Below, in pieces: positions 1 through 15,177 of a stretch of DNA of 28,251 bases (its first letter is position 1; every line of letters begins with the position of its first letter). The position numbers were made by a program, and so were the translations under genes. A model generated the notes under the pieces. The model saw only the letters and a list, made by a program, of their open reading frames with translations. It was not told the origin of the DNA and ran no database searches. Origin of the DNA: Gemmatimonadota bacterium (GTDB lineage Bacteria; Latescibacterota; UBA2968; UBA8231); the NCBI GenBank assembly GCA_038153405.1, contig JAYOYH010000017.1, positions 1 to 28,251 of the forward strand, written 5' to 3'.

Positions 1-2826
1 ATCACCGACGATCAGGGTCGCTACTTTATTCTTAACGTGCCCCCGGGCGCGTATGCAGTAGAGGCTAGCTACGTCGGTTATCAGGCGCTGCGCAAAACCG
101 ATATCGCGGTGCGGCTCGACCTGACGACGACGGTGGATTTCAGCCTCGCCACCGAAGCGGTGCAGACGGAGGCTATGGTCATCACGGCGGAAGCGCCGAT
201 GGTTGAGCGCTCGCTGACCACCAGTCGCGCATCGATCGGCCTGTCCGAGATCAACAATACGATGCCGGTGGCTGATCTGCAGGATCTCATCAACACCACG
301 CCGAGCGTCTTTCGCGGCTATATTCGCGGGGGTCGCAAGGCCGAAGCCAAGGTCTTAGTCGACGGGGTCGACGTCTCCGATACCTACTTTCGCGCGGGTG
401 AAGGAGGCAACACATACAATCCGTACACGGACGTCAACCGCACCTCAGACGGTGAGTTTACGGCCGTGGGCATCAATGCCAGCAACGTGCAGGCGCTCGA
501 TATCGTGGCCGGCACGTTCAACGCCGAGTACGATGCGGCCAGCGCCGGCGTTATCAACGTCGTCACGCGCGAAGGGGGCGATGAGTTAGAGGGGCGCCTC
601 TTTATCCGCAGCGGTCTTGGTGGGTATAAAAATGCGGGCCCGGATGTGTATGAGGGACGCGTCAATCCAAAGCCTGCCGATGATGGCAGCGTCGACAAGA
701 CGACGTACTACGATCTGTACGAGCAGGCCCGAGACCAGCTGTTGGCCTCGGAAGACGCCGCAGACGTGGCGAAGGCCCAGCAGTACTACACCTTCAGACC
801 GGGCGACGTTACCTACGGCAGCAATCCGACGAGCGAAGTGGAGCTTTCGTTGGGTGGTAAGCTACCTGCCATTGGCACCAACTTCTATCTGACTACGCGC
901 TACCTCAACGACGAAGGCCTGTTGCCCAACACGCTCAATCGCTCGATGCGCCATTCGCTCAAGCTGACGCACAAGGCGGGCGATAACCTCAAGCTGACCG
1001 GCAACGTTATGATCGACGACGGCGGCGAATTGGGTGGCTGGGTAAACCGCAACTTCAGCGGTAAGTATGCCTACTATCCGGAAGGCGCGCTAGGTAATAA
1101 GAAGCTGGGTACTATGATGTATGTGGGCGCCAACTACTCGTTTTCGCCCAACACGTTTTTGGATGTCAAAGTGTCCAACGTAACGCGTTCGAGCACGTTT
1201 GGTTATTCCGATGACGATGGAGACGGCATCGTTGAAGAAGGTGAAGACGGCGATTTCATATTCATCGACAGCGCGGAAGAATCCGTAAAGTATCTCGGCG
1301 TTGACGGAAGTGGTGCCGATGCAGACGGCAACTTCACCTACTTCACCACCAACCCGGGTAACTCGAGAAACTTTGACCTGCCGTTTGGTTCCAATCAGTA
1401 CCGCCTAGGTCAGCCGGGTTTCTTTTACGAGGAACTCAATCGCGACGTGCTGCAGTTTAAAGCAGACCTTACGCATCAGATTAACTTTCATCACCAGTTA
1501 AAAGCGGGTATGCTGGTGCGCAAGCACTCCGTGTCGCAGCTCATGCAGCGCACCCAGGTCACGGTCGGCTACAGCAACCTGCCTTTCGAAGTGGGTGAGT
1601 ACGAGCGCAGTCCTTCTGAGATGGCCGTGTACGTGCAGGACAAGATCGAGTACGAAGGCATCATCATTAACGCGGGCGTGCGCCTCGACGGACTCAACGT
1701 CGATGCAGAGCAGATCGCCGATTTCTTCCGTCCGTCCGAAGAGGCCGAGTACACCTACGGAAATGGACAGACGCAGATCTATCGCCGACCGATTCGCGAA
1801 GGCGCAGTCGACACCAAGTGGTTTCTGCAGCCTCGCCTGGGCATTTCGCATCCGATCAGCGACAATGCGGCCATGCACTACTCGTGGGGCAAGTTTTACT
1901 CGCCGCCGTCCTTCTCTAAGCTGTATGACGATTACGCCAGCTTCGCCAACCCGTCCTATCCTGCCATCTACGACGTAGAGGCGGATCCGACGACGTCGAC
2001 GGCCTACGAGATGGGCATTCAGTACAGCTTTCATCCAGAGTACCTGGCGGACATTACGGCGTATTACCGGGACATCGAAAACTATGGCGATATTGGCTTT
2101 GCCATCAGTCCGGCCGATGCGGGCTTTGCTAACTACAGCTTCCGCACCTCGGGTGGGTATGCCGATAGCCGCGGTATAGAGCTGGGCATCGAGCGTCGTT
2201 CGAATAGCCGTATCAACGGCCGTTTCAACTACGCCTACAGCTATATCAAGGCCTCGCGTAGTGGCAATAACTCGACGCCGTTCCCCAATAAGTCTTCGTT
2301 TTCGCACGCCAGTGAGACGGATGTAGATGCATTGACCACGGCGCTTGAGAACAAAGAGTCGTTTAACACCTACGAAGCCAATGTGAACGGGGGTGGTAAT
2401 CCGCTGGTATCGGGTTATGACCGCGCCCATCGCATCGGTTTGACCTTGCTGGCTACGCTGCCTGCCGAAGTCGAACTGGCACTCATCACGACCGCCGAAA
2501 GTGGTTTCAACTTCAACATTACGGCGACCACCGAGGATCCGCGTGCCAGAGAGACCGATCGCGCACCGTGGAACATGCGCATGGACATGCGTCTCAACCG
2601 CGGTTTCCAGCTAGGCGGCTATGAATTAGGTGCGTTTTTTGAGGTGAGGAACCTGATGAACCGCGAGAACATTCTGACCTATGATAATCGCAACGTGCCG
2701 AGCGTCACCAAGTGGGAAGAAGATGGAGATCCGACCGGAGACCTCAATCGCGCCTTCACCGCCCAGAGCCAGGCCATTTATGACATTCCGCGAATGGCTA
2801 ACATCGGCATAACAGTGGATTTCTAA
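1..2826 (+). CDS. TonB-dependent outer-membrane receptor with N-terminal carboxypeptidase-regulatory-like domain (5'-truncated by window edge)
   Basis: Frame is open from base 1 (ITDDQGRYFILNVPPGAYAVEASYVGY, typical CarboxypepD_reg-like extension), so GTG at 37 is internal. Plug motifs IRGGR...VLVDGVDV and GTFNAEYDAASAGVINVVTREG; barrel strands (QPRLGISHP, AYEMGIQY, DITAYYRDI); ends in C-terminal Phe (IGITVDF). Confidence 0.93.
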   Translation: MTDDQGRYFILNVPPGAYAVEASYVGYQALRKTDIAVRLDLTTTVDFSLATEAVQTEAMVITAEAPMVERSLTTSRASIGLSEINNTMPVADLQDLINTTPSVFRGYIRGGRKAEAKVLVDGVDVSDTYFRAGEGGNTYNPYTDVNRTSDGEFTAVGINASNVQALDIVAGTFNAEYDAASAGVINVVTREGGDELEGRLFIRSGLGGYKNAGPDVYEGRVNPKPADDGSVDKTTYYDLYEQARDQLLASEDAADVAKAQQYYTFRPGDVTYGSNPTSEVELSLGGKLPAIGTNFYLTTRYLNDEGLLPNTLNRSMRHSLKLTHKAGDNLKLTGNVMIDDGGELGGWVNRNFSGKYAYYPEGALGNKKLGTMMYVGANYSFSPNTFLDVKVSNVTRSSTFGYSDDDGDGIVEEGEDGDFIFIDSAEESVKYLGVDGSGADADGNFTYFTTNPGNSRNFDLPFGSNQYRLGQPGFFYEELNRDVLQFKADLTHQINFHHQLKAGMLVRKHSVSQLMQRTQVTVGYSNLPFEVGEYERSPSEMAVYVQDKIEYEGIIINAGVRLDGLNVDAEQIADFFRPSEEAEYTYGNGQTQIYRRPIREGAVDTKWFLQPRLGISHPISDNAAMHYSWGKFYSPPSFSKLYDDYASFANPSYPAIYDVEADPTTSTAYEMGIQYSFHPEYLADITAYYRDIENYGDIGFAISPADAGFANYSFRTSGGYADSRGIELGIERRSNSRINGRFNYAYSYIKASRSGNNSTPFPNKSSFSHASETDVDALTTALENKESFNTYEANVNGGGNPLVSGYDRAHRIGLTLLATLPAEVELALITTAESGFNFNITATTEDPRARETDRAPWNMRMDMRLNRGFQLGGYELGAFFEVRNLMNRENILTYDNRNVPSVTKWEEDGDPTGDLNRAFTAQSQAIYDIPRMANIGITVDF

Positions 2827-2839
2827 TAGGAGCTATATC

Positions 2840-5362
2840 ATGCATATGCGAGTAAAAAAGACGTCGCTGTGGGCGGTGGCTCTGCTCTTCGGTATCGTCG
2901 GTAGCGCCTTTGCTCAGAAGGCGGGAGGCGTTTTCACCGCGGGCGATATCTGGGAGTCTTTCCTCCCGAGTAATGCGGGCCGCTTTTACGGAGAAGTCGC
3001 CGACGACCCGCAAAAGAGCTATGACCTGTTCCGAGTCGGTAACTGGGATCGCCAGTGGACGACTCCGACGCAGACCTATCCCGGCGGTGAGAATATCCAC
3101 TTGCCCTGGGGCCAAGAAATACAGATGTCGATGTACAGCTCGAGTGAGATTAACAACTTCACCGATTCGAATGCGCCCAGTGCCAGAAACTATCTGCTCG
3201 GTTTCTACACGAGTAATTTAGCGGGTGCGGGTGATTCCAATCGCGACTACACCAGCGATGGGGGTAGCTACTGGGCTGACAGCGACCGCAACGAGATGCA
3301 CTATACGGGCGGTATGCCAACCAACTTGGGCGTTGATGTGAAATGGCGCATGCGTCAGTATGCAGCCAACCACGCCAACCTGAACGACTTCATCCTCATC
3401 GAGTTGGAATTGACCAATACCGGCGTGCTCGATGCCGACGGCGACGGCGTGCCGGAAAAGACCGACAACCGCGTCGAGGCGCTCACGCTGCACATGCAGA
3501 ACGAGCCGATCAACTCGATGACGAACAGCAACAACGGTCGTCGCGGGGCCAGCGGTTGGTTTACCGGCCCGACATCGGGATACGATGCAACGCCGGACGG
3601 TAGCGGCGCAGCGTGGGACGTGCCGGTCGTGTTTACCGGTCCTGCGCCTAGCTCGCTGACCGAGCCGCATCCGGTCTTTGGTGGCAGCAGCGGCTGGTCC
3701 GCCGATGGCAAACGCTTGCTGGGTAGCACCATGCGCAGCCGCGGTCATTACTACGACATCTACAACGGTATGCAGTGGATCGCTGCTAAACAGGGTGGCA
3801 TGCCGGCCATTGGTAGCAGTGCTAACCAGGACGACAAGCGCACGATCTACGATAGCCATCCCGTCGGAGAGGGCGCCCAGCGCGGCTGGTTTACCTCTGT
3901 GCTGAAAGACGACGGTGGTCGTTCCGATGCGCGCGCATCGCATATCTATGCTATGAGCACGTTTTTCAACGGGCAGTCGATTGGTAGCCGCGTATGGGAT
4001 AAGGGTGCTTCGATCCAGAGCGCGAGTGCCCTAGTGCCCGATCCCAACTGGTTTGATCCAGACCATCCCGATATCGTGCCGGGCGATCCGCTGTCGTTTG
4101 TAAACGCAGTGCGTCCCGAGGGCGAGCGCGGTCAGCCGTTGGGCGATATGAAGTACAACAACAAGTTTGTGCAAAACTGGGAAGTCGATCCGAGCCAGAG
4201 TCTCGATAACCAGCCCGACTGGGCCTGGACAAAAGGCTACACGATCGATCACGGTTTTGACGGAAACATTCTCGTGGGTATTGGTCCGTTCGACCTGGAA
4301 GTAGGCGAAACGATAAACCTAGTGCTCGTAGAGTACGCTGGTTTTCGTCTCCAAGGCGCGCGCGCTGCCCGTCAGACGGCGCAGTGGGTGTATGAAAACG
4401 ACTTCCAAGTCCCGTCGCCGCCGCCGACGCCGAATATGGTGGTTGCACCCAATACAAACGTCAAGATTGATATCAAGTGGGACAATCGGGCCGAGTCGGA
4501 TCCGGACTTTGCCGGCTATAAAGTCTATCGTTCGGCGCTCTTTCCTCGCGTAGACTCACAGCAGGTGGGTATCCGCGTGGTAGATCGCTATCACGAGCAG
4601 ACAAAGGAAAATCCGACCGACGCTGAGCTGGCTGCATTGGGTAAGGCGAACAATCCCAATATCAGCTCTGCGGCCTACAAGCCACAGGAACCTGCGGCGT
4701 GGGGTCCCTATCGTCTAATCAAGCATGTTCCCGCTAGCGAGTTGGGGAACTATCTGAACGATGGTGCTGATAGCGGCACGTACAAGTACAAGTTTGAAGA
4801 CGAGAGCGACTTAGTGACGTTCGGTTTCACCTACTACTACTACGTGGCGGCATATAACAGCGATTCGGGCTCGATCAATGGCCAGGCATTTAACGGTCTT
4901 GAGACGCATCGTCACAACTTTAACGGACGCGACGGTTTGTGGAAGGGCACGTATCACTATGCGACGGCGTCGTCTTTCTTTCCCGCAGATCTGCAGGCCC
5001 AGAAAGACATTGGGGCCGCGTTTATTCTCAAGTCGCCCCTCGTCGATTCGGCGGAATTGGCCAACGGAAACCTCTCCGTGCGCGTAGTCCCCAACCCTTA
5101 TAAGAAAGGGGCTCTGCACGACACGGGTACCGAGCACAAGATGCTCTTTATCAACCTGCCCACCGGCACAAAGGTCACCATCTTTGACGTGTCGGGTCAG
5201 GTTATTGACGTCTTGCGCTTTAATGGCACCAATGCCTACGACGGTACGCTATTCTGGGATATGTTTTCCAAGGATGGTATCGAGGTTGCAAGTGGTCTAT
5301 ACATCTACGTGGCCGAGTACCCCGGTGGTTCACAGACCGGGCACTTCGCCATTCTGCGCTGA
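2840..5362 (+). CDS. Secreted 840-aa protein with FN3-like domain and T9SS-type/FlgD-Ig-like C-terminal sorting domain
   Basis: AGGAG SD upstream; Sec signal (MRVKKTSLWAVALLFGIVGSAFA|Q). Pro linker then FN3-like segment (IDIKWD...FAGYKVYRS...TYYYYVAAYN). C-terminus VRVVPNPY...KVTIFDVSGQVI...FWD...VASGLYIY...GHFAILR matches the CTD pattern. N-terminal ~520 aa not recognised. Confidence 0.8.
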   Translation: MHMRVKKTSLWAVALLFGIVGSAFAQKAGGVFTAGDIWESFLPSNAGRFYGEVADDPQKSYDLFRVGNWDRQWTTPTQTYPGGENIHLPWGQEIQMSMYSSSEINNFTDSNAPSARNYLLGFYTSNLAGAGDSNRDYTSDGGSYWADSDRNEMHYTGGMPTNLGVDVKWRMRQYAANHANLNDFILIELELTNTGVLDADGDGVPEKTDNRVEALTLHMQNEPINSMTNSNNGRRGASGWFTGPTSGYDATPDGSGAAWDVPVVFTGPAPSSLTEPHPVFGGSSGWSADGKRLLGSTMRSRGHYYDIYNGMQWIAAKQGGMPAIGSSANQDDKRTIYDSHPVGEGAQRGWFTSVLKDDGGRSDARASHIYAMSTFFNGQSIGSRVWDKGASIQSASALVPDPNWFDPDHPDIVPGDPLSFVNAVRPEGERGQPLGDMKYNNKFVQNWEVDPSQSLDNQPDWAWTKGYTIDHGFDGNILVGIGPFDLEVGETINLVLVEYAGFRLQGARAARQTAQWVYENDFQVPSPPPTPNMVVAPNTNVKIDIKWDNRAESDPDFAGYKVYRSALFPRVDSQQVGIRVVDRYHEQTKENPTDAELAALGKANNPNISSAAYKPQEPAAWGPYRLIKHVPASELGNYLNDGADSGTYKYKFEDESDLVTFGFTYYYYVAAYNSDSGSINGQAFNGLETHRHNFNGRDGLWKGTYHYATASSFFPADLQAQKDIGAAFILKSPLVDSAELANGNLSVRVVPNPYKKGALHDTGTEHKMLFINLPTGTKVTIFDVSGQVIDVLRFNGTNAYDGTLFWDMFSKDGIEVASGLYIYVAEYPGGSQTGHFAILR

Positions 5363-5390
5363 ATCGATCTAGGAAATGGAGGCTTAACAC

Positions 5391-6431
5391 ATGAAAGCTT
5401 TAAAGATCATAACAGTGCTGGGAATGGCCGTGCTCGTGGCGGCCGTCCAGCCTGCAGAGGCCGGCGTAGGAAAGTCCGGTCTCACCGGTGCCGCCTTTCT
5501 CAAGGTCGGCGTGGGCGCTCGTGCCGTGGCTTTGGGCTCGGCCTACACTACCGTTACGGGCGATGTGAACCAGATGTTTTGGAACCCCGCCGGCACGGCG
5601 ATGAGCGACGGCAAGGCGCAGGTCTTGCTCTCGCACAACTCGTGGATTGCCGACTTGTCGCACGATGCGGTGGGCTATGCGCGCGATATGGGCGATATGG
5701 GCACGCTGGGTATCGGCGTGGTCACGCTTGGTTTGAGCGATATCTCCGCCGACCGCGACGCCGTGCCGCAGTTTGTGCTCGATGCCGGCACCTTCGACCC
5801 CAACGATACCGCGACGTCGGGTAGCTATTCGTATCGCGACTTGGCCATCGGCGTCACCTGGAGTCGCCACATCACGGACCGCCTCGACATGGGTTTGACG
5901 GGCAAGATTGTCCGCCAGGCCATTGACGGTGTTAGCGCTACGGCCTATGCCGCAGATTTTGGCGCGATTTATCGCGTCGGCAACGGCATGCGCCTTGGTG
6001 CGCGCATCAACAACCTAGGCAGCGACCTGACGTTTTACGACATCGGCGCGCCGCTGCCGCTGATTTTCAGCATCGGTGCCGCCGCCGATCTGCTGCACAA
6101 TCGCGACGATGGCATGCAGGTTACGCTGCTGGCCGATGCGACCAAGCCGCAGGACGGCGAGCAGCTGCTCTACACGGCCGTCGAGGTGCAGTTGTTCGAT
6201 ATGCTGCAGTTGCGCTCGGGCTATAAGTTCAACTACCAGAGCTCGGAAGACGAAAAGGTGGACGAGGTCGATGGAACGGCATTTGATGCCCCGCGCACCG
6301 AAGAAGGCCTAACCGCTGGTATGGGTCTCGACGTGGGCATGGGGGGCTACGATGCCACCCTCGACTACGCCTTCACTTCGTTCGGCATCCTCGACAGCGT
6401 GCATCAGTTCTCGCTCAAGTTTCAATTCTGA
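5391..6431 (+). CDS. PorV/PorQ-family (FadL-like, UPF0164) outer-membrane beta-barrel
   Basis: GGAGG SD; signal peptide; family motif AAFLKVGVGARAVALGSAY...MFWNPAG; amphipathic strands; ends LDYAF...HQFSLKFQF with terminal Phe. Confidence 0.85.
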   Translation: MKALKIITVLGMAVLVAAVQPAEAGVGKSGLTGAAFLKVGVGARAVALGSAYTTVTGDVNQMFWNPAGTAMSDGKAQVLLSHNSWIADLSHDAVGYARDMGDMGTLGIGVVTLGLSDISADRDAVPQFVLDAGTFDPNDTATSGSYSYRDLAIGVTWSRHITDRLDMGLTGKIVRQAIDGVSATAYAADFGAIYRVGNGMRLGARINNLGSDLTFYDIGAPLPLIFSIGAAADLLHNRDDGMQVTLLADATKPQDGEQLLYTAVEVQLFDMLQLRSGYKFNYQSSEDEKVDEVDGTAFDAPRTEEGLTAGMGLDVGMGGYDATLDYAFTSFGILDSVHQFSLKFQF

Positions 6432-6454: not shown

Positions 6455-6498
6455 AACAGGGAGGCCCCCGGGATGTGCTTTCGGGGGCCTCTTTTGTT
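6455..6498 (+). terminator. Intrinsic terminator after the TBDR-CTD-PorV unit
   Basis: 10-bp perfect stem GAGGCCCCCG (6461-6470)/CGGGGGCCTC (6482-6491) followed by TTTTGTT. Confidence 0.85.
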
Positions 6499-6643: not shown

Positions 6644-9600
6644 GTGAGAATCGGGTTATACATAGTCCTGCTAGGCGCTGCCTGCAGTGTTGTTCGAGCC
6701 GATGCGGGCCTCGAAGACCGGCTGCGCCACTCCGTCCACGAGCTCTCAGGCCATGCCTCGCGCATGACAGGCTATGCGGGCGCCGACGCGGCGGCCCATT
6801 GGATTGAGCGCGCGCTGGGCGAAATGGCCGTCAAAGAGATTCACCGCCATGCGTTCCCGCTGCTGGTGCCGATGGACGAGGGATTTTCGCTGGAGATCGA
6901 AGGGCAATCTCTGCCGATCTATGGCGTTTGGCCCAATCTAATTCGCACATCCACTCTGCCCGACGGGGGGATTGAGGGTCAACTGCTCTACGGCGGCGAC
7001 GGCAGTCTCTTAGAGGGCAGGCCGGTAGCCGATCGCATCGTGCTGCTCGAATTCAACGCGCAAGACGTCTGGGTAGAGGCTTTTCAGCTGGGCGCGCAGG
7101 CGGTGATTTTTCTGCCAGCAAAAGGCGCACATCGCGCGGAAGCCGGACAAAAATTTCTCGATGTTCCCGCTGATTTGCCGCGTTTTTTTGCGCCGCAGTT
7201 GACGGCCGATGTGCTGCGCGCGGCGGCCGAGCGCGGGCCGCGGGTGCGCCTGAGCGGGCGCATGCCCATGCGCGAAGTGACGGCGCACAACATCGTGGCC
7301 ATCGTCGAAGGCAGCGACCCGCAGCTGCGCGGTGAAGCGGTGTATGTGACGGCGTATTACGACGCCATGTCGCCGGTGCCCGCACTGGCTCCGGGCGCAG
7401 AGCAGGCCAGCAGCGCGGCGGCCCTGCTCGAATTGGCGCGCGGCTGGACCGAGCGGCGTCCGCGCCGCACCGTCGTGCTCGTGTGGACGGCGGGTCATTT
7501 CCAACACCTCGCCGGCATGCGCTATTTGACGCCGGTGGTGATGGCCGCAGCTGGGCGTCGTCCGCCCGATGGGCTAAGCGAGCGGGAGCGGGCGCTGGCT
7601 GAGCGGTTAGGTGCGTTTAGGCTGCGCTTTGCCGCTGGTCTGGATCTGTCTTCCGGCAGCCCTATGATGGGCGCCTTTCGCCCGAATGCTCCGTATCGAA
7701 CTTCGCTGCTAGCACCGCCCCTTACCGTGCGCTTAATGGACCGCGTAGCGGCGTATGAAGATTCACTAGCAGCAGGTCGGCGCATATTTGCCAACGGCCT
7801 CAGGCAGGACTTTACGCGCCAGAGCCTCGGTTCTATGGCAGAGGTCGTGCCGATGGACGCCGCAGTGCTGGCGCTGGCCGGCTGTCCGACGATCGCTTTT
7901 GCGACGATCAACGACAGCCGCGCCCGCTTTGACGTCGTCGACGACGTTGCCGAGCGCGTGCGTTTTGCGTGGCTGGGCGAGCAGGTCGCGCTCCTCAAAT
8001 TTGTGTTATCGGAGCTGGTCGACGACGGCCAATTGGCTCCCTGGGAATGGGGCAATGACGCCTTTGGAACCATTCGCGGGCAAGTGGTTCACTACGGTCC
8101 GCGCAGCTATTTGCCCGACGAGCCCACCGGTCATGCATTGGTGCGCGTGCGCCTACGCCATCCGACGCTGTCCGGCGTGCGCCCCGATTTGTGGGCGGCG
8201 GCGGACGATTCGGGTTATTACCGCATACCCGGCGTAGAGACGCGCATTATCTATACGCAGCCGGTGCGCTTGGAGGCCTACGCGCTGGACGAGCGCGGTG
8301 CCGTTGTCGCAGCGCCGGATTGGGGCATAAACGGCGAGCGCAAGCTGCCCGGCCGCGCCCTCAAGGTGCTGATGGACGATCACGAGGAAGAGGTGCAGAT
8401 CGTTACGGCGAATCTGCGCGGCACGGCGCTCTTTGGCCTGTTTGACCCGCGCAACTTGCTGATGCCGGAGAATCTTGGCGCGATCGACGCGAGCCTCGAA
8501 GCGGAGCCCATGTCGTACGGGGCGTGCCTGCCGCTGACGGCACCGGAGATGGATCTATTTGGCTATAGAAACTACGTCGGTTCGCTAACGGAATCGGTTG
8601 CGGTGCTCTTTACCCGCCCCGGCACGCGCTTTAAGGTGGCCATGTCTACCGGGCGCTACGGACTGGGCCGCCGCCTACTGCTGCTCAATAGCAGCGACGA
8701 AAATCCGCTGGGTGCGGGCTTTGCCGTGCAGGACGAAGGTCGGCTGCCCAACACCGTTTACCAGGCGGCGCGCGATATGTTCTTGCTCAACGGTGCGCGC
8801 ATCGACAACCTGCAGCGACACGGCGTGCGCAACGGACGGCTGGCCGAGTTTCACGCGCGCGCGAAGGCCTACCTAGAGCAGGCCGATGCGGCGCGCGCGC
8901 GCTGGGCCCATCGCCTTTCGATCGATGCGGCGCGGCGCGCATGGGCCTATTCGGCCGCCGCCTATCGCGACGTTGAGAGCACGCAGGCCGGCGTGGTCCA
9001 AGGGGCGCTGTTTTTGTTGGCCGTCCTGCTGCCTTTTGCCCATTTTGCCGAGCGCCTGGTATTTGGCTTTCCCGACGTGCGCCGTCAGGTGCTGGGCTAC
9101 TTCGGGCTCTTCTTTGTCGGCTTTCTCGTCTTGAGTCAGCTGCACCCCGCCTTTGAACTGTCGATTTCTCCCTTTGTGATCTTGCTCGGCTTTGTCATCC
9201 TATCGCTGGGGCTGCTGGTAACCGGCATTGGCATTTCCCGCCTCAACCGCGAGCTGCAGGAACTAGCGCGCGGCCGGCGTGGCCACGCCTCCATGCAGCG
9301 CGGTGGAGCGGTTATGGCATCCATATCCGTGGGGTTAGCCCATATGCGGCGGCGGCCGCTGCGCACGGGAATGACCTGTGCAACGCTGGTCTTACTGACG
9401 TTTTCCGTGCTGTCTTTCACGTCCATTCGTTCGGCTCTGCGCACCAACTGGATCGACGTGGGGAGCGGGGCGCACTACGACGGCGCGCTGCTGCGCACGC
9501 TCGGTTGGAAGGCGATGGAAATGGAGGCCTACCGCATGCTGGTCGACTGGTTTGGCGTCGACAATGTCGCGCCGCGCGCCTGGAAGTCGGTTTCCTCAGC

Positions 9601-11035
9601 GGCGGCGACTTTTCGCGTCGAACGCGCCGATATCTCGGGGCGCGCGACTGGGGTTATGGGTTTTGCCGGTTTGAGCGCAGTCGAAGCGCACCTCGTGCGT
9701 CCGCAGGAAGGACTTGTCGCCGGGCGCTGGCTGCGCGCAGAGGAGGACGATGTATGCCTGCTGCCGCTGGGCGTCGCCGATTCGCTGGGCATTGGCCCAG
9801 CCGATGTGGGCCGCGCTCGGGTGCGCCTGTTTGGCGAAGAGTTTCGCGTGGTTGGGATTTTGGAGCACGCGGCGCTGGAACGGGTCGATCTCAACGGCGA
9901 GGGGCTGACGCCGCTCGATCCGGAAGCGCAGCAGCCCACCGAGGCTGCCTCGACGCAGCAGGGGGGCATGCCGCAGCACTACGCCCATATGCCGGGCGCG
10001 TCGACGCTCGTGCTGCCTTTTTCTTCGCTGATGCGCTGGCAGGGTGCGCACCTCGTATCGCTGGGCGTGCGGATGCCGCCAGCGCGCGCGCGCGCGGAGC
10101 TGGAGATGCTCTCCGAAGGCGTCGATTTAAACCTGTTTGCCGGTCTTGGGGGACGCCGCTATTTGATCAATACGGTGGGAGTAGCCTCCGTTTCGGGACT
10201 GGGACAGCTGGCCGTTCCACTGGGCATTGCCGCGCTGATTGTGCTCAATACGATGCTCGGCGCCGTCTACGAGCGCACGCGCGAAATAGGCACGCTCAAC
10301 GCCATCGGCTTGGCGCCGGTGCACGTGAGCGGACTCTTTATTGCCGAGGCGGTGGCGCTGGCCGTGATTGGAGCGGTTATGGGCTACCTGCTGGGGCAGA
10401 CGGCGGCGCAGCTGATGGGCAGCTTGGGCTGGTTGCAGGGGTTGGAACTGAATTACTCCTCGCTGTCGGCGGTGGTTACTGTGGGATTGGTCATCGCGCT
10501 GGTCGTCGCGTCGGCGCTCTATCCGGCGCATATGGCCGGCAAGATTTGCACGCCGGGTATCGAGCGGCGCTGGAAGCCGCCGGTGCCCGATGGCCACGAC
10601 CTGCGCATGCGTCTGCCCTTTACGCTGGCGCGCGTAGAGGCCGATGGCATGGCCGCTTTTCAAACCGAGTTTTGGGCGGCCCATCGCGAGCAATCGATTG
10701 GCGCAGGGTTTTACGTCGAAGCCCTGCGCGTCGGTCGCCAAGAGAGCGGTCTGCGCCTCGATGCGCGCGTTTGGCTTGCGCCATTTGACCAAGGCGTTGT
10801 GCAGGATACGGCGCTGTTTATCCGCCCTGGTGAGAACCCGCTTTACTGCGATATCGACGTGCACTTGCACTTGGTCTCAGGCGATTGGGATACTTGGCAG
10901 CGCGTGGCGCGCACCTTTCTCGACGATCTACGCAAGCAGTTTCTCGTATGGCGCACGTTAGCGGATGCCGATCGCCGCGCCTATGCCAGCGCGCTTGCGC
11001 GCTGGGAGCATGTGGGCGACGAGGTGCAGGTATGA
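6644..11035 (+). CDS. Large membrane fusion protein: degenerate M28-peptidase/PA ectodomain + beta-sandwich + extra TM bundle + MacB/FtsX-like ABC permease + C-terminal soluble domain
   Basis: Signal-like N-terminus. PA insert (GQLLYGGDG...DRIVLLEF...LGAQAVIF). M28 fold (NIVAIVEGSDPQLRGEAVYVTAYYD...PGAEQASSAAALLELAR). MacB TM1 (RRRPLRTGMTCATLVLLTFSVLSFTS), periplasmic core (GLVAGRWL...CLLP...ADSLGI...FRVVGIL) and FtsX motif (NTMLGAVYERTREIGTLNAIGL...LFIAEA). GTG start lacks a clear SD. Confidence 0.85.
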   Translation: MRIGLYIVLLGAACSVVRADAGLEDRLRHSVHELSGHASRMTGYAGADAAAHWIERALGEMAVKEIHRHAFPLLVPMDEGFSLEIEGQSLPIYGVWPNLIRTSTLPDGGIEGQLLYGGDGSLLEGRPVADRIVLLEFNAQDVWVEAFQLGAQAVIFLPAKGAHRAEAGQKFLDVPADLPRFFAPQLTADVLRAAAERGPRVRLSGRMPMREVTAHNIVAIVEGSDPQLRGEAVYVTAYYDAMSPVPALAPGAEQASSAAALLELARGWTERRPRRTVVLVWTAGHFQHLAGMRYLTPVVMAAAGRRPPDGLSERERALAERLGAFRLRFAAGLDLSSGSPMMGAFRPNAPYRTSLLAPPLTVRLMDRVAAYEDSLAAGRRIFANGLRQDFTRQSLGSMAEVVPMDAAVLALAGCPTIAFATINDSRARFDVVDDVAERVRFAWLGEQVALLKFVLSELVDDGQLAPWEWGNDAFGTIRGQVVHYGPRSYLPDEPTGHALVRVRLRHPTLSGVRPDLWAAADDSGYYRIPGVETRIIYTQPVRLEAYALDERGAVVAAPDWGINGERKLPGRALKVLMDDHEEEVQIVTANLRGTALFGLFDPRNLLMPENLGAIDASLEAEPMSYGACLPLTAPEMDLFGYRNYVGSLTESVAVLFTRPGTRFKVAMSTGRYGLGRRLLLLNSSDENPLGAGFAVQDEGRLPNTVYQAARDMFLLNGARIDNLQRHGVRNGRLAEFHARAKAYLEQADAARARWAHRLSIDAARRAWAYSAAAYRDVESTQAGVVQGALFLLAVLLPFAHFAERLVFGFPDVRRQVLGYFGLFFVGFLVLSQLHPAFELSISPFVILLGFVILSLGLLVTGIGISRLNRELQELARGRRGHASMQRGGAVMASISVGLAHMRRRPLRTGMTCATLVLLTFSVLSFTSIRSALRTNWIDVGSGAHYDGALLRTLGWKAMEMEAYRMLVDWFGVDNVAPRAWKSVSSAAATFRVERADISGRATGVMGFAGLSAVEAHLVRPQEGLVAGRWLRAEEDDVCLLPLGVADSLGIGPADVGRARVRLFGEEFRVVGILEHAALERVDLNGEGLTPLDPEAQQPTEAASTQQGGMPQHYAHMPGASTLVLPFSSLMRWQGAHLVSLGVRMPPARARAELEMLSEGVDLNLFAGLGGRRYLINTVGVASVSGLGQLAVPLGIAALIVLNTMLGAVYERTREIGTLNAIGLAPVHVSGLFIAEAVALAVIGAVMGYLLGQTAAQLMGSLGWLQGLELNYSSLSAVVTVGLVIALVVASALYPAHMAGKICTPGIERRWKPPVPDGHDLRMRLPFTLARVEADGMAAFQTEFWAAHREQSIGAGFYVEALRVGRQESGLRLDARVWLAPFDQGVVQDTALFIRPGENPLYCDIDVHLHLVSGDWDTWQRVARTFLDDLRKQFLVWRTLADADRRAYASALARWEHVGDEVQV

Positions 11036-12939
11036 TAGCGACGGTGAGAGCGCTATTGCTCATCGCCGGCATCACGGCGCTGAGCGGCTGGTTGGCTCAG
11101 CGCATCGAGCTCGTCTATAGCGGACCGCATATCGCCGGTGCGGGCAGTTCGCCGGGTGAGCAGGTCTTTCTCGCCGTGCCGCTGGGGGCGCTGGCGGCGC
11201 TGGCCCTGCTGCGGCGCTGGCTGAGCGAGGGCGAGCGCGCGGTGATCTACGCCGGGCTTGCCGTGGGCGTGTCGGCTACCGCTTCGGGTCTTATGCACCG
11301 CTTTTTGCCGGGGTTGGTGACGGGCTTTTACGGCGGCTTTGCCAGCCCGACGGGGCCCTACTTTAAGTTTTTGCAGGTTGTGCCCGAATGGGCCGTGCCC
11401 GGTGGCCCCAACGCGCCGGCGGCCATCGGCGCCTTTGAAGGCGGCGCTTCGGTGCCATGGGCGGCGTGGGCCGTGCCGCTGGCGGCGTGGTCGCTGTTTT
11501 TTGCCGCGCTATTTCTCACCTCATTTTGCCTAGTCGCCATTTTCCGCGAGCGCTGGATGGAGACCGAGCGATTGGGATTTCCGCTGCTGGAAATGCCGCT
11601 GGCCCTGCTGCGCGAGGGCCTGTTTACCAATCGCCTGTTTTACTGGGGATTGCTCGTTTCCGTTCTCTTGCTCGGCACCAATGGACTTAACCACTACGTT
11701 CCGGCCGTGCCGCAGATCACCCTCGGCCTCAACTTTGCCGATTTCCTCCTAGACGATCCCTGGAAGGCGATGGCGCCCTTTGAGACGCCGTTCCGCTTTC
11801 AGTTTTCCCCACTGCTCGTGGGCGTCGCCTTTTTGGCGCCGGTCGAGGTGTCGTTTAGCACGTGGTTTTTCTTCTTGGTCTCGCGCCTCCAACTGCTGGT
11901 AACGGGGCTTATTGGCCGTCTGGAGTATCGCGGCGAGTTCATACCGGGACACGGGTCGCCCTGGCTCGATTGGCCGTCGCACTTTCCGTTCTTTATGCCG
12001 CAGGCGCGCGGTGGGCTGCTTTTTTTAGTGCTCTTTGGCTTGTGGACGGCGCGGCGCTCGCTGGCGGCTATGTTGGCCCCGGGTCGCTGGCAGGTGTGGG
12101 GGTTTGCCGCTGGTTTTGCCCTGCTATGGGCGTGGATTGCCCTGCTGGGCGTGCCCGTTGCCATGGCCGGTCTGACGTTGGTTCTGTTTTTTTTGCTGGC
12201 GCTGGGCTTTGCGCGTCTGCGCGTCGACGGCGGCCTGCCCGTAAACGGCGTGCCGCAGATTATGGGCTATATGTTTTTTGTGGCGTTGGGCACGGGGCCG
12301 GGGGTCTTTCCCGATCAGACCTATGTGGCCTTCGCGCTCTTGGCCGTATTGGGCTTTACCTGCGTGGGTATCTGGCCGGCCCTGCAGTTTGAAGGGCTCA
12401 AGCTGGCCGAGGCGACAAGCGTTGCGCCGAGCCGCATGGTCTTAGGCATGTGCGTGGGCCTGGCCGTCGGCCTGGCCGCTGGCTATGTCTTCTCGTTGGA
12501 GGCGATCTACCAGCACGGCCTCTTTGCCTTGCAGGAGCAGGGCGGCGCGCGCTCGGAAGCGCGCATTGGGCGCTATTACAACTATCTGTTCAAAGACGCC
12601 GGTGCCACGGTGGGACCGACCGACTGGATTCGCCTGGCTTTCCACGGCGTGGGGGCGGCAGTGACGGCTTTCCTGGCGGTGATGCGCCAGCATTTTCTGC
12701 GCTGGCCCTTTCATCCGATGGGCTATGTCTTTGGCACGGGCTTTGGCTGGCTGGTGTGGGGGCCGGCGCTGGTGGGCTGGTTGTGCAAGTGGCTATCGGT
12801 GCGCTACGGTGGCGCGCAAACCTATCGCCGCCTGCTGCCCTTTTTTCTGGGGCTGATCTTTGGCGAGGTGCTAATGCGCCTCGTGTGGGCCGCTGTCGCG
12901 CTGTGGCAGGGGCAGATGGGGGCGGGATTCCGCTTTTAA
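11032..12939 (+). CDS. Polytopic membrane protein, DUF6785/DUF6784-like (distant OPT-superfamily relative)
   Basis: Start re-assigned to ATG 11032, which overlaps the upstream stop (ATGA), giving 635 aa. Highly hydrophobic. Motifs RERWMETERLGFPL and RWPFHPMGY...GWLCKWLSVRYGG...YRRLLPFFLGLIFGE recalled as typical of DUF6785/DUF6784 proteins. Confidence 0.75.
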   Translation: MIATVRALLLIAGITALSGWLAQRIELVYSGPHIAGAGSSPGEQVFLAVPLGALAALALLRRWLSEGERAVIYAGLAVGVSATASGLMHRFLPGLVTGFYGGFASPTGPYFKFLQVVPEWAVPGGPNAPAAIGAFEGGASVPWAAWAVPLAAWSLFFAALFLTSFCLVAIFRERWMETERLGFPLLEMPLALLREGLFTNRLFYWGLLVSVLLLGTNGLNHYVPAVPQITLGLNFADFLLDDPWKAMAPFETPFRFQFSPLLVGVAFLAPVEVSFSTWFFFLVSRLQLLVTGLIGRLEYRGEFIPGHGSPWLDWPSHFPFFMPQARGGLLFLVLFGLWTARRSLAAMLAPGRWQVWGFAAGFALLWAWIALLGVPVAMAGLTLVLFFLLALGFARLRVDGGLPVNGVPQIMGYMFFVALGTGPGVFPDQTYVAFALLAVLGFTCVGIWPALQFEGLKLAEATSVAPSRMVLGMCVGLAVGLAAGYVFSLEAIYQHGLFALQEQGGARSEARIGRYYNYLFKDAGATVGPTDWIRLAFHGVGAAVTAFLAVMRQHFLRWPFHPMGYVFGTGFGWLVWGPALVGWLCKWLSVRYGGAQTYRRLLPFFLGLIFGEVLMRLVWAAVALWQGQMGAGFRF

Positions 12940-12963
12940 TCGCGCGTTTTTGCAGGAGGAGCA

Positions 12964-14946
12964 GTGGCACAACACGATCCAAACGCCGACCTGGAGGCCT
13001 ATCGCAGCCTGATGGAGCGGCCCGAGCACTTTGCGGAGGGATTTACCTACCGCACGGTGATTGGCGCGTTCTTTGTCGGCTTTATCATGATGCCGGGCGC
13101 CATCTACATGGGATTGATCGCCGGCGTATCGCTGGGTTCGGCGGCCGAGTGGGTGACGATCATCCTCTTTTCCGAACTGGCGCGGCGCTCGTTCTCTTCG
13201 CTGACGCGCCAGGAGATCTATCTCATATACTATATTGCCGGTGGCCTAGCCGGCGTCATTGGCGGCACCATGCTGGCTGGTGGGCCCTTTGGCCAGCTGA
13301 TGTGGAACCAGTATTTGGTGCAGTCGCAGGCGGCCGAAGGCTTTGGTATCGCCGACAAGATACCGGACTGGGTTTCGCCGATGGCCGGGTCGGAGGCCAT
13401 CCTCTCTCGCTCTTTTCTGCACCGGGCGTGGATTCCACCGATCGCCGTGCTGGTCGCCGCGCAGGTGCTGTCGCGCGTGGAATGGTTTACGCTCGGCTAC
13501 ATTCTCTTTCGCGCGACCTCCGACGTCGAGCGCCTGCCCTTTCCGCTGGCCCCCGTCGCCGCGCAGGGGGCGATGGCGTTGGCCGAGAACGACGACGAGC
13601 GCGAAGGGTGGCGCTGGCGCGTCTTTTCGGTGGGATTGGGCATCGGATTGCTCTTTGGAGCGGTCTATATCGGGCTACCGGCGCTAACGGGTTTGATTGC
13701 CAGCGATCCCATTGCGCTACTGCCGATTCCGTGGATCGACCTGACGCGCACGACCGAATCCTTTCTGCCGGCCGCACCGCTGGGGATAGGCACCGACCTC
13801 GGTCTGGTGCTGCTGGGCACGGTGCTGCCCTTCTGGGTGGTCGTCGGGTCGTTTACCGCGGCCATGGTGCATGCGCTGGGCAGCCCGCTGCTCTACCACG
13901 CCGGATTTCTAACGCACTGGCGTCCGGGCATGGATACGATTATGACCAACTTTGCCAACGATGTCGACGTGTGGATGAGCGTCTATATCGGGGCCGGATT
14001 TGCCGTTGGCATCATTGGCGTTATCCACGCTGTGCGCTCGTTTCGCACTGCCCATCGCGAAAAGAAAATGAGCAGCTTTAGCATCGTGCCCAAAGGGCGC
14101 GGTGATTTTCCACTGTGGTTGGCCTTTGTCGGTTACGGGCTGTCGACGCTGGCCATGGTTGCGCTGTGCACGCTGCTGCTGAGAGACGACGAATTTCCGC
14201 TGGCCTTCCTGCTCATCTTTGGTTTTGTCGTCACGCCCGCTCTGTCCTATGTCAATGCGCGCATGTCGGGGCTAACGGGCCAGACGGTATCGTTTCCAAT
14301 GATTCGCGAGGGGGCTTTCATACTGAGCGGGTACAACGGAGTCGATATTTGGTTTGCGCCGATACCCTACGCCGATCACGGTCGTCGCGCACAGCTCTTT
14401 CGCGAGGTCGAGCTGACGGGCACGCGCTTTACGTCGATTCTCAAGGCGGAATTGCTCATCCTGCCGCTGAGCCTGATCTGCGGCTTTGTGTTTTGGCAGC
14501 TGATCTGGAGCATGGGACCGATTCCCTCGCCGGCCTTCCAATATGCACAGACCTACTGGCATTTGATTGCGCTGCGGCAGTGCTTGTGGTATTCGGCGAC
14601 GCTGGGCGGAGAAACGCTCTTTGATACGGCGATCAAGGGATGGTGGATTGCCGGCGGCTTTGCCTTTGCCGGCGGGGCGTTCGGCGTGCTGTCGCTGCTG
14701 CGCCTGCCGGTATCGCTGATCTACGGTTTTGTGCGCGGCCTGTCGGGACTGCCGCACCTGCTGATCCCAGAGATGATCGGCGCCCTGCTGGCGCGCTACT
14801 CGTTAGAAAAGCGCTTTGGCGCCGAGCGCTGGCGCCAGTACGCTCCCGTATTGTTGGCCGGCTACGCCTGTGGGATGGGATTAATCGGCATGTCTGCCGT
14901 GGCCATTGCGCTCATATCAAAATCCGTCACCCAAATGCAGTACTGA
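12964..14946 (+). CDS. OPT/YSL-superfamily (oligopeptide/metal-chelate) transporter-like protein
   Basis: AGGAGG SD before GTG. N-terminal EGFTYRTVIGAFFVGFIMMPGAIYMGLIAG followed by LTRQEI; ERLPFPLAPVAAQG matches the OPT LxFP motif; many TM segments over 660 aa. Confidence 0.8.
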   Translation: MAQHDPNADLEAYRSLMERPEHFAEGFTYRTVIGAFFVGFIMMPGAIYMGLIAGVSLGSAAEWVTIILFSELARRSFSSLTRQEIYLIYYIAGGLAGVIGGTMLAGGPFGQLMWNQYLVQSQAAEGFGIADKIPDWVSPMAGSEAILSRSFLHRAWIPPIAVLVAAQVLSRVEWFTLGYILFRATSDVERLPFPLAPVAAQGAMALAENDDEREGWRWRVFSVGLGIGLLFGAVYIGLPALTGLIASDPIALLPIPWIDLTRTTESFLPAAPLGIGTDLGLVLLGTVLPFWVVVGSFTAAMVHALGSPLLYHAGFLTHWRPGMDTIMTNFANDVDVWMSVYIGAGFAVGIIGVIHAVRSFRTAHREKKMSSFSIVPKGRGDFPLWLAFVGYGLSTLAMVALCTLLLRDDEFPLAFLLIFGFVVTPALSYVNARMSGLTGQTVSFPMIREGAFILSGYNGVDIWFAPIPYADHGRRAQLFREVELTGTRFTSILKAELLILPLSLICGFVFWQLIWSMGPIPSPAFQYAQTYWHLIALRQCLWYSATLGGETLFDTAIKGWWIAGGFAFAGGAFGVLSLLRLPVSLIYGFVRGLSGLPHLLIPEMIGALLARYSLEKRFGAERWRQYAPVLLAGYACGMGLIGMSAVAIALISKSVTQMQY

Positions 14947-15177
14947 TTATTTGTGTTCGGCGTGCAGATACTGACGGGCGGGCGGCTGGTTGCGCAACTG
15001 CTCTTGCAGACCGCGATGAGCCGTGTAGTGATTGCTATCGGTATCCGTGGTTAGGCCGGATACGGCATTCAGCGTCATATAGGTGATTGCGATGCCGGCC
15101 AGCATGACGCCCACGGTGAGCATATCGCGGATTTGCTCTTCGTGATCGAATAGGAAGTTGCGGATAAAATGGGGCAT
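14947..15177 (-). CDS. Small single-TM hypothetical protein (76 aa)
   Basis: GGAG SD upstream on the minus strand; one hydrophobic stretch (MLTVGVMLAGIAITYMTLNAV); fills the gap between two real genes; has a promoter-like element of its own. Confidence 0.65.
   Translation of the reverse strand: MPHFIRNFLFDHEEQIRDMLTVGVMLAGIAITYMTLNAVSGLTTDTDSNHYTAHRGLQEQLRNQPPARQYLHAEHK

Follow-up and report, generated by a model that had tools for sequence, protein, structure and literature searches.

A Latescibacterota gene trio as a possible part of a proposed importer sharing one type VII ABC motor among many OPT-fold carriers

What kind of system would combine, in one row of genes, a giant protein bearing a peptidase-like head and an FtsX-type membrane module with two proteins resembling oligopeptide transporters (OPT)? 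The question is raised by positions 6644 to 14,946 of contig JAYOYH010000017.1 (assembly GCA_038153405.1), a stretch of 28,251 nucleotides that was analysed over its full length and is referred to here as the window. The source genome measures 4.86 Mb and is 93% complete, and the closest relatives are metagenome-assembled genomes named Latescibacterota or Gemmatimonadota. When all lines of evidence are considered, the trio may be read, with a probability of about 0.5, as part of a larger conserved ATP-driven importer, in which one motor of the type VII ATP-binding cassette (ABC) class would be common to many OPT-fold carriers, much as in the group II energy-coupling factor (ECF) transporters; the carriers probably import small organic nutrients. 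A wider version of this reading, whose chances fall somewhat short of even, would see here primary active transport of a new class, in which elevator-type OPT-fold carriers are driven by a type VII motor that as many as 40 or more exchangeable DUF6785 proteins have in common; it would be a main route of uptake for Latescibacterota and Armatimonadota and would have an archaeal counterpart. The three genes, all confirmed as open reading frames, are the following:

6644..11035, + strand: gene 1, giant membrane subunit of the type VII ABC class, beginning with a hydrophobic leader (1463 aa, GTG start)
11032..12939, + strand: gene 2, DUF6785+DUF6784 carrier with the OPT/Yellow-Stripe fold; the genome has 21 such paralogues in all (635 aa, ATG start)
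12964..14946, + strand: gene 3, OPT-family-related core subunit and full-length homologue of gene 2, one of five paralogues (660 aa, GTG start)

The first-pass annotation, made from the sequence of the window, had proposed these three genes as a candidate membrane machine. This proved too narrow, as a small FtsX protein, one or two ATPases, a protein with two repeats and a PqqD-like protein also belong to the system and lie elsewhere in the genome. The window trio is one of six related cassettes: the genome holds six copies of gene 1 (on contigs C17, C49, C60, C7, C8 and, fused to a DUF6785, C5), five of gene 3 and 21 DUF6785 genes, 16 of the latter standing alone, and none of the gene 1 cassettes contains an ATPase. 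A locus from Desantisbacteria shows an uninterrupted run of gene 1, gene 3, two-repeat protein, PqqD-like protein, small FtsX and ATPase, and the genes of this type of run were used as queries against the genome of the window. The two-repeat and PqqD-like genes were found behind genes 1 and 3 on C8, in one copy each; a single small FtsX (236 aa), with a short outer loop only, lies on C18 next to ATPase A, which matches an operonic ATPase at 73%, and ATPase B (57%) stands as an orphan on C2. Both ATPases have intact Walker A and B motifs, signature and H-loop. Gene 1 is thus served by ATPases encoded in trans here and in-operon elsewhere, their cognate status being drawn from operon linkage and co-occurrence. 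For the two-repeat protein, neither a Pfam family nor a named neighbour in the Atlas was found, and the repeat within it is a modest one (hhalign 81.5%, E 1e-5). Since one small FtsX and two ATPases stand against six copies of gene 1, five of gene 3 and 21 of DUF6785, the counts fit a shared motor, that is, one energising module for many substrate subunits as in ECF systems, the exchange of subunits being read from the counts only.

The distribution of the parts across genomes points in the same direction. Of 81 sampled genomes of its own phylum, 73 have gene 3, which is missing only in eight genomes of a single family (f10). In a panel of 40 hand-picked genomes, made up of 32 with gene 3 and all eight without it, gene 1, DUF6785 and exactly one small FtsX with an adjacent ATPase A are present in the same 32 and absent from the other eight; copy numbers range from 1 to 8 matches for gene 1 (split pieces included) and from 1 to at least 28 for DUF6785, and ATPase B is found in 24 of the 32. 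Among 41 genomes of the Armatimonadota (the phylum of genome G081), gene 1, gene 3 (1–2 copies), the two-repeat protein (1) and DUF6784 (5–42) coincide in the same 29 and are missing together from the other 12; of the 29, 28 also carry the small FtsX. None of the 81 genomes searched for both has DUF6785/6784 in the absence of the core, and DUF6785 was absent from all 14 control genomes, of which Caulobacter and Bacteroides contain a canonical OPT. These counts overstate independence, because the genomes are kin. That all parts serve one system is considered very probable.

Gene order gives a further, less uniform, view of the same association. The whole operon (gene 1, gene 3, two-repeat, PqqD-like, FtsX and ATPase genes) is found in three genomes of the window's own phylum (G003, G005 and G011) and at locus L079, being preceded in G005 and G011 by gene 2 and a TPR gene, and the order ATPase B, gene 2, gene 1, gene 3 is seen in G040 and G052. 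Twenty Armatimonadota gene 1 loci were fetched, 15 of them picked for a nearby small FtsX: 11 show the six-gene operon, four the order FtsX, ATPase, gene 1, gene 3, four only genes 1 and 3, and one gene 1 alone, with no gene 2 in any of them, although their genomes carry 5–42 copies elsewhere. Fusions of genes 1 and 2 occur on C5 and in genome G060, and on one metagenome contig the tail of gene 1 stands directly before a gene 3 that falls in a cluster named Bathyarchaeia. A count over the best 80 of 583 gene 3 loci speaks against a fixed trio: genes 1 and 2 are both present in 44 of the 58 Latescibacterota-like loci (42 of the 48 with enough flank), but among those titled Armatimonadota gene 1 is found in 2/21 and gene 2 in 0/21.

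Several arrangements stand apart from these patterns. Locus L135 (G064:C10) has a 2315-aa frame consisting of gene 1, only the first ~106 DUF6785 positions and further sequence of unknown nature, possibly a broken or a novel fusion; long gene 3 frames in L034, L036, L041 and L043 were considered as fusions and rejected as shadow extensions. Two Armatimonadota-titled contigs (L083, L085) carry tandem gene 3 pairs without gene 1 nearby. In sponge-type relatives (L021, L023, L024, L031, L033, L037, L051, L063 and others), genes are inserted between genes 1 and 2, namely a 275–307-aa gene (family F8, 10/80 loci), whose start resembles a DppA/M55 peptidase, and restriction-modification-like genes. 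TPR, ExbB/ExbD/TonB, PpiC and lipoprotein genes border other cassette types (L048-L058, L003, L002), which hints at a link to outer-membrane uptake.

When gene 1 is considered from a structural point of view, the order of domains read in the first-pass annotation (M28/PA domain, beta-sandwich, extra membrane helices, MacB/FtsX permease, soluble tail) is borne out by profile search, an AlphaFold2 model (aa 300-1463, 82 sequences, pLDDT 84.5) and structure comparison:

6716..8053, + strand: M28-fold domain with PA insert, aa ~25-470 (profile match, alignment to 2ek8, 44 homologues)
8066..8752, + strand: two beta domains, aa ~475-703 (model and structure comparison)
8753..9274, + strand: helical stalk and three extra membrane helices, aa ~704-877 (model and conservation)
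9302..10564, + strand: complete MacB/FtsX module, aa ~887-1307, with amphipathic helix, TM1, periplasmic core domain, TM2-4 (model) and a conserved coupling-helix motif
10571..10963, + strand: cytoplasmic alpha/beta tail, aa ~1310-1440 (model; KA1/helix-grip-like, Z about 9, a common arrangement)

Within the FtsX module, Pfam FtsX matches at 1193-1297 with 48.5 bits against a cut-off of 25.5 (MacB_PCD stays below its cut-off), model positions 588-1008 align with the four-helix fold of HrtB, YtrF, MacB and LolC (Z 15-18.6), BceAB is also among the structural relatives, and the coupling-helix residues M1204, V1208, E1210, R1211, G1222, L1223, P1225 and E1235 are invariant in 44/44 homologues. 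Conservation, taken as the mean share of the top residue, is higher in the membrane parts (0.58-0.70) than outside (0.44-0.56), and the three extra helices, with invariant P797, E803, R804, H834-P835, F837 and F850, are a candidate docking site for an OPT-fold partner. Of the two beta domains, residues 475-590 form a carboxypeptidase-regulatory-type beta-sandwich (1qmu: Z 9.3, root-mean-square deviation 2.1, 78 residues aligned), and the second has no listed structural match.

The head of gene 1 has the fold of a peptidase with an altered site. A profile built from 12 homologues and compared with solved structures matches the PA-containing M28 aminopeptidases 2ek8 and 6hc6 (E 1.4e-18, positions 24-321), and also MacB, YtrF, LolC/LolF and Nicalin (7tm3 chain 7, E 3.7e-7); the model, which lacks half of the M28 domain, listed no Nicalin or M28 structure. 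We take the canonical M28 motif to comprise two His, two Asp and one Glu as metal ligands plus a catalytic Glu. Across 44 operon-paired homologues, scored for conservation and compared with the metal site of 2ek8, this set is not preserved: the first His ligand is Tyr238 in gene 1 (Tyr/Phe in 38, His in 5), the Glu-Glu pair is replaced by His285 (43/44) and Phe286 (35/44), and the last His by Asp430 (40/44), with the acids Glu253 and Asp334 retained in 43/44. These altered ligands argue that the head, as judged from its sequence, is not a canonical peptidase, its own pocket nevertheless being conserved. It thereby resembles M28 pseudo-peptidases such as Nicalin, which have the fold without canonical metal or catalytic residues and sit on a membrane complex, but differs from them by its fusion to an ABC membrane module and by its own conserved His/acid pocket. 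Nicastrin and GPAA1 are further pseudo-peptidases of this kind.

The OPT-like nature of genes 2 and 3, also suggested earlier, is supported by a structural model for the former and by homology for the latter. Gene 2 contains the Pfam families DUF6785 and DUF6784, and its model (68 sequences, pLDDT 89.9) matches barley YS1 in Foldseek (E 6.8e-9, TM 0.65) and in structural alignment (Z 24.3, root-mean-square deviation 3.8 over 539 residues), this being the only clear match, with the next at Z 5.6, so that the core and scaffold domains of the Yellow-Stripe fold are both present. Gene 3 has no Pfam family above cut-off, and direct BLAST of genes 2 and 3 finds no similarity, their homology being visible with profiles only: the gene 3 profile aligns to that of gene 2 over 576 columns (99.4%, E 5e-21), and it is on this alignment that the OPT-likeness of gene 3 depends. 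Sequence and profile searches of both against solved structures gave nothing useful, and an aquaporin match in the structure search (E 0.52) was set aside as chance. Neither gene of the window reaches the cut-off of Pfam OPT (PF03169). Weak OPT matches appear in 3 of 47 gene 3 relatives. Two paralogues in the genome of the window score 25.2 and 21.2 against a cut-off of 25.8, and one archaeal-type gene 3 exceeds it (42 bits). Acidic residues, of which Asp446/490/494 couple protons in YS1, are patchy in the presumed ninth membrane helix of gene 2, where D/E occupies column 443 in 38/68 sequences and E column 454 in 21/68. The first-pass annotation had grouped genes 2 and 3 as an OPT-like pair; the two are not equivalent, as gene 3 is a low-copy core part and gene 2 one of 21 scattered paralogues. 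Three gene 3 paralogues (L001:2115-4742, L004:3424-5838, L127:14839-17718) carry soluble insertions of 140–300 aa near the C-terminus, one with Reg_prop repeats and one with acidic calcium-binding-like repeats.

Regarding the cargo, a gene for a PhyH-type dioxygenase or a Gfo/Idh/MocA oxidoreductase is found no more than 3 kb away from 10 of the 16 DUF6785 genes that stand alone, where random placement gives 3.1 and 2 of 5000 draws reach the observed number; the same test gives 7/16 against 2.2 at 2 kb and 10/16 against 4.5 at 5 kb, and none of the five copies linked to gene 1 has such a neighbour. Both families are very largely expanded, with 125 PhyH-family and 71 Gfo/Idh/MocA matches in the whole genome. 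These neighbours are only a hint toward small organic solutes, in place of the (glyco)peptide proposed in the first-pass annotation, because the families were chosen after the neighbours had been viewed. A quick tree of 68 DUF6785 proteins mixes linked copies with stand-alone ones and places gene 2 of the window in an operon-linked clade.

How such parts might work together can be outlined in steps. The core, as established by genomics, consists of gene 1, gene 3, the two-repeat and PqqD-like proteins, the small FtsX and ATPase A, often with ATPase B. By the architecture of MacB and LolCDE, the FtsX half of gene 1 and the small FtsX would pair asymmetrically, as in a type VII system, and the ATPases would dock on their coupling helices. 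Gene 3 may be a constant OPT-fold protomer seated on the extra helices of gene 1, which a DUF6785 protein such as gene 2 would join as an exchangeable, cargo-specific protomer, in the manner of the YS1 dimer, and the ATP stroke would then drive or reset the elevator domain of the carrier; type VII strokes move helices without carrying solute, according to the available part of PMC8277102. As the weakest step, the altered M28 head might bind or pre-select cargo outside, the gene 1 paralogues being six versions of the core.

It is important to stress that several points weigh against this importer. In the available parts of their descriptions, the type VII systems known so far work on the outer side and not on inner-membrane carriers (PMC8277102), and known OPT/YSL proteins are proton symporters with no need of an ATPase (PMC9691689). 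The PqqD/RRE domain suggests cytoplasmic peptide binding, which a small-molecule importer would not need. Gene 3 often lies away from gene 1, as in 10 Armatimonadota-titled loci with at least 4 kb upstream, of which two contain gene 1 and none gene 2. The absences are clade-bound, all eight negatives of the own phylum being one family and the kinship of the 12 Armatimonadota negatives not given, so that independent losses may be few, and ATPase B was not found in 8/32 positive panel genomes at E 1e-75. As to cargo, the post hoc choice of families counts here as well, and 6 of the 16 stand-alone copies have neither family within 3 kb. Finally, physical contact between motor and carriers is conjectural.

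Four rival explanations were weighed. Along the lines of the first-pass annotation, each cassette could be a fixed complex of the three genes, whose head would bind a (glyco)peptide or a piece of polymer in the periplasm, ATP-driven motion then handing it over to a proton-driven OPT pair; stand-alone DUF6785 proteins would in that case be independent proton symporters. The presence of genes 1 and 2 in 42/48 Latescibacterota-like loci with enough flank, the fusions between them, the strong selection on the altered pocket (H285 and D334 in 43/44, D430 in 40/44) and the cassettes beside TonB/ExbBD, TPR and PpiC genes all speak for it. We nonetheless consider it unlikely, since independent symporters sit badly with a family that, among the 81 genomes searched, is confined to those with the core, with linked and stand-alone copies interleaved in the tree and with 20 Armatimonadota gene 1 loci devoid of gene 2 in genomes holding 5–42 copies elsewhere. 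Alternatively, the core might be an assembly or quality-control machine dedicated to DUF6785, in which a Nicalin-like head and an ATP motor act while PqqD-like and two-repeat proteins grip cytoplasmic tails, the finished carriers then working alone as secondary transporters. Nicalin has a role in multipass-protein biogenesis and is matched by the gene 1 profile, strict co-occurrence and a single-copy core are explained equally well, and the RRE-type domain is accounted for; true M28 peptidases, however, score far above Nicalin, a chaperone would not need six gene 1 paralogues, a constant OPT-fold subunit or fusions of genes 1 and 2, and the canonical OPTs of Caulobacter and Bacteroides manage without such a system (DUF6785 in 0/14 controls), all of which makes this explanation improbable.

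A reversed direction of transport is judged about as improbable. Here an RRE-like protein would deliver a peptide, OPT-fold subunits would move it or a lipid-linked envelope precursor outward or flip it, and the MacB-type part would release it, in keeping with the PqqD domain in the core operon, with the TPR, PpiC and lipoprotein neighbours and with the removal of substrates from membrane or periplasm by type VII systems (available part of PMC8277102). Uptake is the better fit for dozens of carriers located beside catabolic oxidoreductases and dioxygenases, and no conserved precursor peptide or modifying enzyme was found in 80 loci. The least probable explanation is a sensing complex akin to BceAB-BceS, with the head and OPT-fold proteins binding ligands and the ATPase cycle signalling inward; the KA1/helix-grip-like tail and the structural kinship with BceAB would suit it, but the examined loci show no recurrent family of kinases or regulators.

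Although every fold in the shared-motor importer is known, the system as a whole was not found described. It shares with type VII ABC systems (MacB, LolCDE, FtsEX, HrtBA, YtrEF, YbbAP, BceAB) the four-helix FtsX module, the periplasmic core domain, the coupling helix and MacB/LolD-type ATPases, and probably, for gene 1 and the small FtsX, an asymmetric membrane pair as in LolC/LolE. It departs from them by the 880-residue N-terminal extension of gene 1 (M28/PA head, beta domains, three extra helices) and its cytoplasmic tail, by a partner FtsX whose outer domain is nearly missing, by ATPases encoded in trans, by a single motor for several gene 1 paralogues and by OPT-fold partners. From the OPT/YSL family (PF03169; barley YS1, PDB 7wsr/7wst), whose fold is common to the gene 2 model, gene 3 being homologous to gene 2, the two proteins differ by an identity of 14-16% and the lack of a Pfam cut-off match. 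In the available part of PMC9691689, YS1 is a proton-driven elevator that dimerises with itself through its scaffold domains and has no ATPase partner, whereas DUF6785/6784 never occurs without the ABC core in the searched genomes. Group II ECF transporters, in which one module with two ATPases (EcfAA'T) serves many scattered, divergent S-components (available part of PMC4820897), are alike in genetic logic only: no folds are common, the membrane subunits being FtsX-type instead of EcfT and 635-aa YS1-type carriers instead of six-helix S-components, and the sharing is deduced from gene counts. The first-pass annotation knew of no characterised system with this combination, and the literature search, within a scope that excluded subscription journals, TCDB and supplements, likewise found no description of DUF6785, DUF6784 or a MacB/FtsX and OPT system; the available parts of a survey of prokaryotic OPT gene contexts (PMC3061005) do not mention FtsX, and term searches in PMC5898192 and PMC9425974 gave no match. 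If the importer is real, it joins two transporter classes held separate, namely ATP-driven MacB/FtsX mechanotransducers and proton-driven OPT elevators, it represents an independent invention of the shared-module logic of ECF systems, and it gives a function to DUF6785/6784, present in 21 copies here and in up to 42 per genome in the searched uncultured heterotrophs. The small genomes G005 and G011 carry the whole set in one operon, which makes the system directly testable by co-expression.

The borders of the locus agree with the earlier description of a co-oriented trio between a terminator and a convergent gene. The ATG of gene 2 overlaps the TGA of gene 1 as ATGA, and gene 3 starts behind AGGAGG after a 24-nt gap. 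Downstream, a 76-codon frame with one hydrophobic stretch (14947-15177, - strand; family F11, relatives in 6/80 gene 3 loci) has its stop abutting that of gene 3, and a class-V aminotransferase lies beyond it. One metatranscriptome matched 6% of words, in 13 short contig pieces of which none bridges genes, and was not used as evidence. Upstream, the trio is preceded by one further feature:

about 6458..6498, + strand: intrinsic-terminator-like hairpin, at about 6458-6494, and T-run (sequence; fold -28 kcal/mol), closing the upstream TonB-receptor/T9SS-cargo/PorV operon

A consensus terminator scan did not report this hairpin. The flanking TonB/type IX secretion system (T9SS) and downstream ilv/leu genes are not counted as parts, because they lie past the terminator or on the other strand and recur in close relatives only, the PorV family being found in 13/80 loci. 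The upstream operon itself (1-6431, + strand) is made up of genes for a TonB-dependent receptor, for an 840-aa protein that carries a weak sorting domain of T9SS type at its C-terminus and for a barrel of the PorV/PorQ family, a cargo cassette resembling those of the T9SS although the genome is not from the Bacteroidota.

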